Source: Escherichia coli (GTDB taxonomy: Bacteria > Pseudomonadota > Gammaproteobacteria > Enterobacterales > Enterobacteriaceae). From it: a DNA stretch of 64,000 bases. Of this stretch, positions 15,001 to 21,000 are shown in pieces. Positions within the stretch are counted from its first letter, which is position 1; each line of letters begins with the position of its first letter. Location of the stretch: NCBI RefSeq assembly GCF_002854065.1, contig NZ_CP024147.1, one strand, 5' to 3'. Made by a program: the position numbers.

Positions 15001-18000
15001 CGCATTACGGCTGAAAAACAACGTGCGATCGAAATCCACCGGCTCGTTTATCTCGCAGATCCGCGAACTGGAATCGGTGCGGGAGCTGATTACTTCCACC
15101 ACTATCGGCGCGGTGGCGGATCTGCCGTTCTTCCTGCTGTTTGTTTTTATTCTGTGGATGATCGGCGGCTGGCTGGTGCTGGTGGTTTTGCTGGCGCTGC
15201 CGTTGCTGGTGATCCCCGGCCTGCTGGTGCAACGCCCGCTGGCGCGGCTGGCGAACGAAGGAATGCGCGAGTCAGCGGTACGCAACGCTACGCTGGTGGA
15301 AGCCGTGCAGTCGATTGAAGATATTAAACTGCTGCGCGCCGAACAGCGTTTCCAGAATCAGTGGAATCACACCAACGATGTGGCCTCGTCCATCAGCATG
15401 AAGCAACGTTTTCTCACCGGGCTACTGCTCACCTGGACCCAGGAAGTGCAATCCATCGTCTACGTCGTGGTGCTGTTGGTGGGCTGCTTTATGGTGATGA
15501 ACGGCGACATGACCACCGGCGCACTGGTCGGGACGACGATCCTGGCTTCGCGCACCATCGCGCCGCTGTCGCAGATATCCGGCGTGCTCTCGCGCTGGCA
15601 GCAGGCGAAAGTAGCACGTAACGGCCTTGATGAACTGATGAAGCGTCCCGTGGATCAGCCGGAACACGGCAAACTGGTGCATAAAGCGGTGCTGCACGGT
15701 AATTATCAGTTCAGCAACGCGGTGTTTTATTACGACGAAGAAGAGAAGATTGCCGATGTAGCGATTGGCAAACTCAACATTCAGGCTGGTGAGAAAATCG
15801 CCATTCTCGGGCGCAACGGCGCGGGTAAATCGACGCTACTGCAAATGCTCGCCGGAATGCGTATCGCCCAGCAGGGGCAGGTGTTGCTGGATAACATCAG
15901 TATCGGGCAGCTTGATCCGGCGGATCTGCGGCGCGACATGGGGCTACTCAGCCAGACCGGGCGACTGTTCTTTGGTTCGCTGCGGGAAAACCTCACCATG
16001 GGGATGCCGGAAGCCAGCGATGAAGATATCGAACGCGCGTTAACCCTCAGCGGAGCGCTGCCCTTTGTGCAGAAGCAGAAAAACGGTCTCAACTACATGA
16101 TTCAGGAAGGAGGATTTGGCCTCTCTGGTGGCCAGCGGCAAACGCTGCTGCTGGCGCGGCTACTCATCTCTCAACCCAATATCGTGCTGCTCGACGAACC
16201 CAGCGCCTCGCTGGACGAAATGGCGGAAGCGTATTTAATCGAACAACTGAAACAGTGGATTGGGCATCGCACGCTGGTCATCGCCACTCACCGCACGGCG
16301 ATGCTGCAACTGGTGGACCGCATTATCGTGATGGATCAGGGGCGGATTGTAATGGACGGCGCGAAAGAGGCCATTTTGCGTGAACAGGGCGAACCCACGG
16401 CGCGACGGGTGGTGTTGCAGGAAAAGAATAAGGGGTCTGCCGCATGAACGGACAACTGCAATATAACCGTGGCCTGACTGAACCCCGCCTGCCGCGTTCG
16501 GCGTTGGCGGTACGCGTTACTGCTGTGATGCTGTTTTGTTTTCTTGGCTGGGCGTGGTACTTCCAGCTTGATGAAGTCACCACCGGCAGCGGCACGGTAG
16601 AACCTTCCGGGCGCGAACAGGTGGTGCAGTCGCTGGAAGGCGGAATTCTGTATCATCTGAACGTGAAAGTTGGCGATATAGTTGAACAGGGCCAGCCGCT
16701 GGCGCAGCTTAACCGCACTAAAACGGAATCCGACGTCCAGGAAGCGATGTCGCGGCTGTACGCTGCGCTGGCAACCTCGGCGCGGCTGCGGGCGGAAGTG
16801 AGCAATAAACCGCTGGTCTTCCCTGACGAACTGAATAAATTCCCCGAACTTATCGAGTCGGAAACGGCGTTGTACAACACTCGCCGCGACGGGTTGAACA
16901 AAGCCACCACCGGGCTGACGCAGGGGAGCAGTCTGGTCAATCGCGAACTGGCGATGACCCAGTCGCTGGTAAAACAGGGGGCAGCGAGCAGCGTCGAAGT
17001 ACTGCGCCTGCAACGCCAGGTCAATGAACTGGAAAACAAACTTAGCGACGTGCGCACGCAATACTACGTACAGGCGCGGGAAGAGTTAGCGAAAGCCAAT
17101 GCGGAAGTGGAAACCCAGCGTTCGGTGATCCGTGGGCGTGAAGACTCCCTCACCAGGCTCAACTTTACTGCGCCAGTTCGTGGCATTGTTCAGGATATTG
17201 ACGTCACCACAGTTGGCGGCGTCATTGCCCCCGGTGGTAAACTGATGACCATCGTGCCGCTGGATGAGCAACTGCTGATTGAGGCAAAAATCTCCCCGCG
17301 CGATGTGGCGTTTATCCATCCGGGGCAAAAATCGCTGGTGAAAATAACTGCCTACGATTACTCCATCTACGGCGGCCTGCCGGGAGAAGTAGGGGTGATA
17401 TCACCAGACACCGTGCAGGATGAAGTGCGGCGCGATGTTTATTACTATCGGGTGTACATTCGCACTTTCAGCAACCATCTGGAAAACAAAAGCAAACAGC
17501 AGTTTCCGATATTCCCCGGTATGGTGGCGACGGTCGATATCCGCACCGGCAAAAAAAGCGTGCTGGATTATCTGTTGAAACCCTTTAACAAAGCACAGGA
17601 GGCGTTGCGCGAACGATGAACATTAGCGATGTAGCAAAAATTACCGGCCTGACCAGCAAAGCCATTCGCTTCTATGAAGAGAAGGGGCTGGTGACGCCGC
17701 CGATGCGCAGCGAAAATGGTTATCGAACCTACACGCAGCAGCATCTCAACGAATTGACCTTACTGCGCCAGGCGCGCCAGGTGGGCTTTAACCTGGAAGA
17801 GAGCGGCGAGCTGGTGAATCTGTTTAACGACCCGCAGCGTCACAGTGCCGACGTCAAACGTCGTACGCTGGAGAAGGTGGCGGAGATCGAACGGCATATC
17901 GAAGAACTGCAATCTATGCGCAACCAGCTACTGGCGCTGGCGAATGCCTGCCCCGGTGATGACAGCGCCGACTGCCCGATTATCGAAAATCTCTCCGGCT

Positions 18001-21000
18001 GCTGTCATCATCGGGCGGGGTGAAAATCAGTTAATTCCCGTTTGCACCGAAAGAATATGCTGCAAACTTTCTACCATAATGCGCCCCGACTGAAATAAGC
18101 CTTCCTGGATTTCATTGTTAACATTCACAGCGTGAACCAGGGAGGCTAATAATACTACTTGCAAGAAGGCAAAAATAAACGCACCGATAATCATAATATG
18201 CGTCAGGGGTATTTTCCTTTGTTCCTTCATTTTAAATAACCCACAAACTGGCCTTCTTTCATTAAGGCGACTTTTCCTGTGTGATGATAAACAATGACGT
18301 TATACAGACCTGACTGATAAACAGTGGCATCTTTATTGTCTTCATCAATTGCACATAATGAATCATTGAGATAAGCAAAGTTTTTACTGCTCATTCTAAA
18401 GGTCATGCCAAATCCTTTATAAATGGCTTTCTTTGCCGCCTGGGCGTGTTGTGCGGCTTCTGCATTTTTAAATGCCTGTGCCTCGGATGCACTTAAAATA
18501 GCCGCCTGACGCTGCTGTTCTGCGAGATAACAGGTGTCATGGCTGACGCCCTGCGCCTGGCAATCTGCGATGCGGGAAGCGGGTGAGCTACAGCCAGCCA
18601 GTAATATAACCGCCAGCAGGGAAAACGATTTAATGGAGCTATTCATCATTGTTAACCTTAAATAATGTACAAATTAATGAAGAGGTGAAAACCGGCAAGC
18701 TTCCTTGCTCTTATTTATATTGAGGATTGAAATATTAGAACGAATATCCCACGCCGACACCCGCGCCGAAATCAGATTGTGTATCCGCAGAGACACCGGC
18801 TTTAATCACGGTATGCGTTCCGGCATTAAAAGATGTTCCTACAGACACCGCAGATTCACCGTTGAAGGTTCCCGCTCCCGCTGACACCATCATCAAGTCA
18901 CCGGTTTTCACCTGGGGTTGTGAGGCGATAGCGATGGCAGATGCAGTTCCCGCATTGGCTTCTTTACGATTATCCTCAACTTCGTTTTTCAGCGAACTGA
19001 AATGGTTATTGAGCGTGTTAATTTGCTGGCTGTTATCTGCAACCCGTTTTTGGGTGTTGGTTAACTGTTGGTGCGTTTGGGTTACGTCTTGTGACAGGCT
19101 GTCAATTTGTTCATGTGCCTGGGCAGACTCCTGCGCCAGACTTTGCATTTGTTTATCGTATTGAGTCCTTTCATTTTGCTGTTGTGCTGCCACATCGGTT
19201 GTCAGCGCATTCATTTTCTGCCCTTGTTCAGTGGTGGTGCGCTGATTAGCCTCATTTTGAGCCGCCAGTCTGGCATTAATCATCTCCTGATAATGCGCGG
19301 TATTTTGCGTATCTCCAGTCGCGGCGAGCGTTTTTTGTGTGGCTACGATCTACGCCTGTTGCTCTGTAATTTGCGTTTGCTGGGCGTCAGTTACCGCAGA
19401 CTGTCGGGCGTTGATCATGCTCTGATAACGGGCAGTTGTCTGTACATCACCTGTAGCGGCAACGGTTTTTTGTCCTGCGTCAGGATCTGTCTGGACAGTG
19501 GGAGTCTGAGTGGTATCAGGTGTTTCAGAAGGGATGTAGTGATGTTCAGTCAAATAGGTATACGCAGCGGGGCTGTTGTCTGTGCGTTCTAAAAAGCGGG
19601 TAATCTTCTGCTCAATCTCCGATTGCGACATGCCAGAGTTAATGGCTGAAAGCTCTGTTGCCGCCGCTTCAATGGTATCACCAGCTAAAACAACAGGGCT
19701 AGATGTTGCTGAAATTATGAGTGCCAGTAAAGCTACGTTTACAGTTTTCATTCATTTTCTCTTGTTCAAAATAAGTCGTATTAATGTTTCTATAAGAAAC
19801 AAATAATATTGTTTTAAGAAATAAACTGCGTTGCAATTTGATCGAAATCTACGCCGCCATTTATGTGATGTAAAGCGCATTTTTGTTTGGTGTAAGCGTA
19901 AATACCACCAATAAGAAACAAAAATTGTTTCTTTTATAAATAAAAAAGGAAAACATTTCGTGCTCTTTCAATGTAAAAAAGAGTAAAGACTAGTTTTGAT
20001 AAGCGAAATAAATTCTGTTTCTGGACTAAACGTGAAGCGGTTCCTGATGTGTGCTAAAATGCGTTTCTTTGATAAATCTCAATTTTTAAGAGGTTTACGC
20101 CAGGCAGGAAAATTTAAATGAATGAATTTGAGAAGATTTTTAATGAAATGAATCTGGACCGGGCATTGCTACCGATCCTTTTTCGTTCGAACCGGTCGAC
20201 AGTGTGGAAGTATTTAAGCGGCGATAGTACGGCTCCTGCCTCTGCCATGTCGCTGATTATGCTGTTGCAGTTGATACAGAAACGAAACCCCGATCTGTTA
20301 GCCGAATGGTTAACGCTTTCTGATTTCACCATTCCGCCAGAAGTTTACCTGGACCAGCCTGATTACTGGAAAGGGTGGGTGTATACCCAACACAAGGTCA
20401 ATAAAAACGTCCTGGAATATCTAAAAAAACACTATCCGGATGAAGACCAAAAAAGTATGGGTAAAGGCAGGGAAGAGTAATTTTGCCTCTACTCGGCTAT
20501 ATGCCGGATGCGGCGCAAGCGCCTTATCTGGCCTACGATTCGGGCATATTTTGTAGGCATGATAAGACGCGTCAGCGTCGCATCAGGCGATGACCGCACG
20601 GATGATCAGCGTTATCCCTTCTATCGCAATGACTTCAACATGCGTACCTGCGCCGAGATCCTCGCTGGCGCTGACAGGCCATGAACTGTCACCGACGCGC
20701 ATATGACCGCGCCCGTTGACCAGCGGAGATTCCAGCACAAAACGTCGGCCAATCAGCTGCTGCCCGCGCTGGTTTAAATGACTGTCGCTGTGCTTTTGTT
20801 CGCGCACCCGCCGCGACAACCATTTCCACCACAGCCAGGCGGCGAGCAGCGTCAGGACGGCAAACATCACCCCTTGCCACTCCCAACCCAGCGGCACCAG
20901 CCAGACCACCAGGCCGGTAATCACCGCTGCCACGCCACTCCACAACAAATAACCATTTCCGCCCAGCATCTCGGCTGCTAGCAGCAACCCGCCGAGACTG

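Follow-up and report, generated by a model that had tools for sequence, protein, structure and literature searches.

How did cueR, the gene of a Cu(I)-responsive regulator of the MerR family, come to begin on the stop codon of an adhesin-export gene, and from which promoter is it expressed there? Both questions are raised by a 64,000-nucleotide stretch of an Escherichia coli genome (contig NZ_CP024147.1, assembly GCF_002854065.1; here the window), in which cueR follows the gene of an HlyD-family periplasmic adaptor, or membrane-fusion protein (MFP), of a type I secretion system (T1SS). We find it likely that cueR, lying just downstream of an O-island-28-type cluster, is transcribed from an internal promoter within the MFP gene, with read-through from the secretion genes as an optional addition. 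Comparison with other genomes further shows that the sequence directly upstream of cueR in most E. coli is what remains of the same MFP gene. The genes at the junction, all on the + strand, are the following (CUWW06 is a near-identical E. coli genome).

1-14281, + strand: siiEA (rtxA28/rtxB28 of O-island 28), a BapA-related/RTX giant adhesin, 3' 14.3 kb of the gene, from the open frame and the RefSeq annotation of CUWW06
14285-16447, + strand: T1SS ABC permease/ATPase (hlyB28 homologue); TIGR03375, LssB type, 836 bits against a cutoff of 693
16444-17619, + strand: HlyD-family T1SS periplasmic adaptor (MFP; hlyD28 homologue), full length; TIGR01843
17616-17619, + strand: ATGA, the cueR start codon and MFP stop codon, its TGA coming from cueR's own conserved Met-Asn codons
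17616-18023, + strand: cueR, Cu(I)-responsive MerR-family regulator, 135 amino acids; NF007590

The open reading frames (ORFs) of the MFP (391 amino acids) and of cueR overlap by 4 nt, exactly as the sequence-only reading had described them: the MFP frame closes with ...GCG TTG CGC GAA CGA TGA at 17619, and the cueR frame opens with ATG AAC ATT AGC... at 17616. RefSeq annotates identical coordinates for both genes in near-identical genomes. An annotation artefact, in which the true cueR start lies further downstream or the MFP gene is truncated or extended, is extremely improbable; we found nothing in its favour, and both proteins argue against it. Residues 1-135 of CueR align with positions 1-135 of the equivalog profile NF007590 (308 bits; cutoff 244), with a further match to TIGR02044 (206.6 bits against 147.4), and the protein has the same accession (WP_001026752.1) in the window and in O157:H7 strain EDL933. 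The same N-terminus, MNISDVAK, opens the orthologues read, from Escherichia loci and seven other enterobacterial genera, which rules out a misannotated cueR start. On the other side of the junction, the MFP matches TIGR01843 over its full length (326 bits; cutoff 208.65), with residue 391 aligned to the last profile position (422 of 422), and a T1SS ABC transporter gene adjoins it upstream, as expected of an HlyD-family adaptor. Nearly all of the best 120 MFP homologues listed, including every named one from another genus, are also 391 amino acids long, and those of Pseudocitrobacter and Enterobacter cloacae end in ...KAREALRER at the same codon, followed by a TAA or TAG of their own. The MFP stop is the natural end of the family.

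The overlap itself is ordinary gene architecture: 4 nt, already annotated, on the border of a characterised island. Overlaps of 4 nt are the commonest class for bacterial genes on the same strand. The ATGA is not statistically remarkable, because two other gene pairs in the window, ABC/MFP (16444-16447) and ybbJ/qmcA (21038-21041), overlap by 4 nt by their coordinates. With translationally coupled cistrons of the ATGA type the junction shares the same-strand stop/start overlap and a Shine-Dalgarno (SD) sequence inside the upstream gene. It differs from them in that MFP and cueR are functionally unrelated genes joined by insertion, and in that cueR has its own start site inside the MFP gene, according to EDL933 data.

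The island is O-island 28 (OI-28) of enterohaemorrhagic E. coli (EHEC) O157:H7 EDL933 (tolC28-rtxA28-rtxB28-hlyB28-hlyD28; z0608-z0635). RefSeq gives the gene order as a TolC-family protein, siiEA ('BapA-related adhesin SiiEA'), ABC transporter, HlyD-family adaptor and cueR. Over the 2.3 kb around the junction, identity is 100% with CUWW06 and 98-99% with many other strains, O157:H7 among them; with EDL933 the window shares the ybaT-cueR locus, the gene order and a MFP/cueR junction that is 100% identical over 17394-17650. In EDL933, by contrast, an internal stop splits the adhesin gene into two ORFs, whereas siiEA is uninterrupted over 14.3 kb in the window, where it extends beyond the left edge (GC content 58-63%), and is a full-length coding sequence in CUWW06. 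GC content across the island is atypical (56-63%, against 46-50% just downstream). Hallmarks of mobility were not seen: no integrase or tRNA gene is annotated between ybaT and cueR, and the K-12 deletion junction has only 1 nt of microhomology, although no dedicated repeat search was made. Giant adhesins secreted by T1SSs are also encoded by Salmonella pathogenicity island 4 (SPI-4; siiABCDEF) and BapABCD loci and by Pseudomonas LapA/LapBCE. These loci likewise place a giant repetitive adhesin alongside an ABC transporter, an MFP and a TolC-like protein, but differ in gene order and chromosomal location, and we know of no metal regulator overlapping the MFP stop in SPI-4, Bap or Lap loci. A 2025 study described OI-28 as an RstA- and Ca2+-activated T1SS/adhesin system needed for early adherence, with every OI-28 gene responsive to RstA and Ca2+; it makes no mention of cueR or of the overlap (PMC12758282).

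Evidence for the start of cueR transcription comes from Cappable-seq of EDL933, in which a + strand transcription start site (TSS) at 604687 was assigned to cueR in all 8 conditions, with relative read scores (RRS) of 4.2-9.0 and no differential regulation across conditions (PMC10469882 supplements). This TSS falls at position 1012 of hlyD28 and precedes the cueR ATG (604847) by 160 nt, so that a sense 5'-triphosphate start is mapped within the upstream ORF in EDL933. Given the identity of the two genomes over 17394-17650, the equivalent start in the window is 17456. The following elements, all within the MFP coding sequence, accompany it.

17456, + strand: predicted cueR TSS, 160 nt upstream of the ATG, transferred from EDL933 Cappable-seq by sequence identity
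17443-17448, + strand: TACTAT, proposed -10 box of the internal cueR promoter, at -13 to -8 of the mapped TSS
17598-17603, + strand: AGGAGG, SD sequence for cueR, 12 nt upstream of the ATG, read from the sequence
17566-17571, + strand: GATTAT, counterpart by comparison of the K-12 GAATAT box upstream of the -39 TSS; candidate only

The putative -10 box is encoded by Tyr codons of the conserved DVYYYRVY motif and is identical in EDL933. By comparison with outgroups, the AGGAGG stands in for an ancestral GGGGGA SD. The GATTAT candidate corresponds to a position at which the EDL933 Cappable-seq data list no TSS (-39), and we do not claim that the K-12 -39 promoter is active in the window too. Further sense TSSs are listed in hlyD28 of EDL933 at 603894 and 604481/604482 (window ~16663 and ~17250), and one inside cueR at 604956 (window ~17725).

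Other searches of the junction returned little. Near cueR, a sigma-70 consensus scan of 14000-19000 gave no promoter on the + strand; the mapped TSS was not flagged because its weak promoter misses the 9-of-12 rule. On this point the published maps of primary transcripts are a better guide than motif searches. No + strand intrinsic terminator was predicted in 17400-17616 between MFP and cueR, and Rfam over 16400-20600 returned no element at the junction. Folding shows the -160 and -39 leaders to have less structure than their shuffled versions (z +1.3 and +1.6), and neither contains an attenuator or an SD-sequestering hairpin. Allowing up to 3 mismatches, CueR operator matches in the window occur only at chance level, the sole perfect box being that of the copA promoter, outside the window; there is therefore no sign of cueR autoregulation or of CueR control of the island. 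The sequence-only reading had proposed that read-through could tie CueR levels to T1SS expression, had suggested looking for an internal promoter in the 3' end of the MFP gene, and had held that a strong independent promoter together with a terminator in 17400-17616 would speak against the link. The internal promoter is borne out by the EDL933 start site, and the terminator is absent, so that only half of that combination is found.

Whether read-through is the main route can be judged from EDL933 RNA-seq, reported as reads per kilobase per million mapped reads (RPKM) in 11 conditions, the LB reference first (PMC4048457). The values, many of them low counts, are as follows.

tolC28: 105, 243, 23, 418, 462, 1, 19, 58, 13, 117, 3
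hlyB28: 2, 1, 1, 5, 3, 0, 0, 1, 2, 0, 1
hlyD28: 6, 3, 1, 3, 5, 8, 1, 4, 2, 2, 0
cueR: 14, 12, 0, 2, 29, 5, 0, 27, 6, 2, 0

An alternative account makes cueR functionally the last cistron of the adhesin-export operon, expressed mainly by read-through from the tolC28 promoter and by ATGA coupling, so that CueR dosage tracks the RstA/Ca2+-controlled T1SS. The overlap and the SD inside the upstream gene are real, the + strand scan predicts no terminator, the response to RstA and Ca2+ extends to all OI-28 genes (PMC12758282), and polarity may be lower in the window, where siiEA is uninterrupted, than in EDL933. The transcript data point the other way. Abundance falls about 50-fold from tolC28 to hlyB28 in LB, yet cueR exceeds hlyB28 and hlyD28 in most conditions (in LB, 14 against 2 and 6). 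cueR stands at 2 when tolC28 is at 418 and at 27 when tolC28 is at 58, its correlation with this first gene of the operon is not significant (Spearman 0.46, p = 0.15), and an independent, unregulated TSS lies 160 nt upstream in all 8 Cappable-seq conditions. CueR levels tied to T1SS expression by read-through are thus not favoured by the available transcript data, and we consider this unlikely as the main route.

Several points nevertheless weigh against transcription chiefly from the internal promoter. The TSS at -160 is a weak one preceded by a poor -35 region (ATGAAG), and the consensus scan is blind to the promoter. The transcript evidence comes from EDL933 and is transferred to the window strain by sequence identity, and the RPKM values are low counts. 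cueR and hlyD28 are correlated (Spearman 0.78), a relation that also speaks for the operon, but to which the 160 nt that the cueR transcript shares with hlyD28 would contribute in any case. Finally, the internal stop in EDL933 siiEA may raise polarity there, so read-through could matter more in the window strain. With the internal promoter still preferred, cueR transcription would begin at an apparently constitutive weak site in MFP coding sequence (window 17456, -160), and cueR would be translated from the AGGAGG encoded in the MFP tail. T1SS read-through, with termination-reinitiation at the ATGA, could add to cueR expression, since no terminator intervenes.

How cueR came to depend on this sequence is suggested by its arrangement in other genera. 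We scanned one genome per species with CueR, giving 80 loci, 75 of them outside Escherichia. Wherever the flank of a non-Escherichia locus reached copA (about 50 of the 75), copA was divergent from cueR, a regulator/target unit of the MerR type; in about three-fifths of those ~50 loci the two start codons are ~108 bp apart, and in the rest they are farther apart. In the seven outgroup sequences read, the CueR box of the copA promoter lies 15-40 bp from the cueR ATG (...ACCTTCCAGCAAGGGGAAGGTCAAGGGGGAAAnATG), and the sequence up to cueR is ...GGAAGGTCAAGGGGGAAAnATG(cueR), with divergent copA ~108 bp away. The divergent units of Salmonella, Citrobacter, Klebsiella and Enterobacter have the same regulator as the window (83-91% amino acid identity) and a copA promoter with the same ACCTTCC-N7-GGAAGGT CueR box. 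In contrast, no divergent unit is found in Escherichia, where glsA-ybaT, with or without the island, stands between the copA promoter and cueR. In the window, cueR is parted from copA and its promoter by glsA-ybaT and the ~24.6 kb island, lacks the ancestral SD and upstream region, and is transcribed in the same direction as its upstream genes rather than divergently.

Both breakpoints can be placed closely. On the copA side the E. coli sequence reads ...GGAAGGTCAAG and then, directly after GGTCAAG, where the left breakpoint falls, AAATTAATAACCC..., leading into glsA. In Escherichia the order after ...GGAAGGTCAAG is glsA-ybaT-tolC-siiEA-ABC-MFP, with the MFP tail reaching the cueR ATG, which is the right breakpoint. 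The stretch replaced in Escherichia, from the copA promoter to the cueR ATG, measures only ~10 bp and had held the old SD with its spacer, and the TGA that serves as the MFP stop is part of cueR's conserved ATG-AAy. Thus the earlier proposal that the island inserted immediately upstream of cueR holds against other genera, with a breakpoint at the ATG, but does not hold as a difference from K-12.

This comparison suggests a history in which, in an ancestor of the genus Escherichia, glsA-ybaT and the T1SS cluster came to lie between the copA promoter and the start of cueR. The insertion would have severed cueR from the divergent copA-cueR control region and swapped its ribosome-binding site, and the ATGA overlap would have arisen because the MFP stop position coincided with a TGA that cueR's ATG-AAC already contained. 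We rejected the arrival of cueR together with the island: cueR keeps its ybbJ-qmcA neighbourhood and shows species-level divergence, and related cassettes elsewhere are not trailed by cueR. ybbJ-qmcA lies downstream of cueR in the window, where a 2.56-kb insert separates the two, and in nearly all of the 80 loci with flank that long. In many Citrobacter species an insert of ~2.9 kb separates cueR from ybbJ, and in several copA is missing from the 6 kb upstream of cueR; the cueR neighbourhood is a recurrent insertion site in other genera too.

The strains that lack the island, with which a comparison had been proposed, do not preserve an empty site; K-12-type genomes carry a scar instead.

17520-17615, + strand: 96-bp MFP tail, retained as a frameshifted scar in K-12-type E. 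coli, from K-12 alignment, BLAST breakpoints and a pseudogene call by the Prokaryotic Genome Annotation Pipeline (PGAP)

The spacing between ybaT and cueR in K-12 is 124 bp, and alignment to the window identifies the last 96 bp as the 3' end of the MFP gene, about 92-94% identical and with one base fewer in an A-run, a 1-bp frameshift. The breakpoints are sharp in BLAST: K-12 matches an island-bearing reference until 28 bp beyond the ybaT stop, the match resumes 96 bp ahead of the cueR ATG, and the deletion amounts to 24,588 bp, with 1 nt of microhomology at the junction. PGAP annotates the scar as a frameshifted pseudogene without an N-terminus, ending on the TGA over the cueR ATG. The 96-bp tail is HlyD sequence and not a native cueR leader, because the C-terminal residues that it encodes recur in orthologous MFPs at other loci; downstream of those in Pseudocitrobacter and Enterobacter cloacae lies cho or an EAL-domain gene rather than cueR. 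The frameshifted 96-bp remnant of the MFP gene marks K-12-type genomes as deletion derivatives. Presence of the island at this fixed locus is variable: among 5426 complete E. coli genomes, 4458 have the K-12 scar junction and 959 the intact MFP-cueR junction.

Beyond E. coli, Escherichia sp. MOD1-EC7003 has the K-12 junction, E. albertii a different one that keeps only about 55 bp of the MFP tail, and E. whittamii and Escherichia sp. E1V33 the intact MFP-cueR junction. In the divergent E. coli SCPM-O-B-8794 the island is heavily decayed. A seemingly third class of junction, from a 'beta-barrel domain protein' match next to cueR, was an ordinary island-positive strain with a diverged MFP allele. 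By sequence comparison, the MFP-cueR junction is older than island loss in the K-12-type lineage and in E. albertii, and most E. coli lost the island later, by the 24.6-kb deletion that spared the last 96 bp of the MFP gene.

These scars bear directly on the reverse history, in which this lineage recently acquired the island next to cueR and K-12-type genomes show the original empty site. Such an origin would fit the high GC content of the island (about 46-50% just downstream of it), its presence in only 959 of the 5426 genomes and the occurrence of related T1SS cassettes at other loci in other genera. It is already contradicted by the frameshifted scar encoding the conserved HlyD C-terminus, by the different and shorter scar of E. 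albertii, by the same junction in E. whittamii and Escherichia sp. E1V33, and by MFP-tail sequence upstream of cueR being found in no outgroup; we regard it as very improbable. Two qualifications apply to the older insertion that we prefer. It could have been a single event, or glsA-ybaT and the island could have entered separately, and the high island GC would also fit later acquisition spread by recombination, although the scars argue against such spread for the K-12-type and E. albertii lineages.

Loss of the island has left K-12 with different cueR start sites. Cappable-seq of K-12 maps four, at -115 (RRS 3.7), -86 (49), -39 (100) and -21 (2) (PMC4782308). The two strongest, -86 and -39, sit in the scar, and the -160 site was removed by the 24.6-kb deletion. 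A TATTAT box for the -86 TSS (8896-8901 of the K-12 locus record) straddles the deletion junction and has no counterpart in the window, and Escherichia sp. MOD1-EC7003 has TACTAT where K-12 has TATTAT. This suggests that the -86 promoter arose through the deletion and was then strengthened by a change from C to T. An earlier K-12 cueR TSS, 292 nt upstream and inside ybaT (Kim 2012), is irrelevant to island-carrying strains, and the part of the Kim 2012 tables considered here lists none for Klebsiella cueR.

Taken together, these comparisons lead us to propose, tentatively and at somewhat less than even confidence, that the whole cueR upstream control region in E. coli is recycled HlyD-family coding sequence, and that island loss rewired, and possibly raised, cueR transcription. 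Its parts, put forward jointly and with the same reserve, would be a -10 box in Tyr codons inside the MFP gene in island strains and, in K-12-type strains, starts in the 96-bp scar with a -86 box made by the deletion. Public annotation or supplementary data already record the island, the overlap and the start site; in the literature searched, we did not find the evolutionary reading, that is, cueR cut from copA control, promoters in HlyD coding sequence and the K-12 scar.

The DNA around cueR is variable in other respects. A 2.56-kb segment at 18024-20582 (GC about 46%), between the cueR and ybbJ stops, is absent from K-12, in which the two stop codons are adjacent, so that variable DNA flanks cueR on both sides. 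The segment encodes hypothetical/lipoproteins of 67 and 140 amino acids (- strand), a YadA-family autotransporter (- strand) and a hypothetical protein of 120 amino acids (+ strand). The autotransporter gene (18735-19751, - strand) has an in-frame TAG at codon 134 (19350-19352), the result of a G to A difference at 19352 from CUWW06 and EDL933, which both encode Gln; it is likely a strain-specific pseudogene. Downstream of ybbJ, 20462-20600 contains palindromic elements resembling repetitive extragenic palindromic (REP) sequences, with classic GCCTGATGCGACGCT-type sequence and sub-threshold Rfam naRNA4 matches on both strands. cueR itself differs between the window and K-12 at 22 of 408 nt (5.4%), with one amino acid change (N103D), and from E. 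whittamii at 19 nt, about as many. This is well above the divergence of the adjacent stretches (glsA-ybaT 1.7%, ybbJ-qmcA 2.5%), and cueR is, by these nucleotide counts, a gene of unusually deep synonymous polymorphism.

If the proposed recycling of HlyD sequence is true, pathogenic and laboratory E. coli would differ in CueR dosage as a hidden variable. When hlyD28 or all of OI-28 is deleted, as in EHEC adherence studies, the mapped cueR TSS and its ribosome-binding site are lost as well, and copper regulation could for that reason change as a side effect. The ybaT-cueR 'intergenic region' of K-12 is a secretion-gene relic carrying the two strongest mapped K-12 cueR starts, so that what is learned of the cueR promoter in K-12 need not hold for the ~18% of E. 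coli in which the island is kept. More broadly, the locus is a clean and datable case in which a regulator has been separated from the divergent promoter native to it and has survived on promoters within foreign coding DNA.

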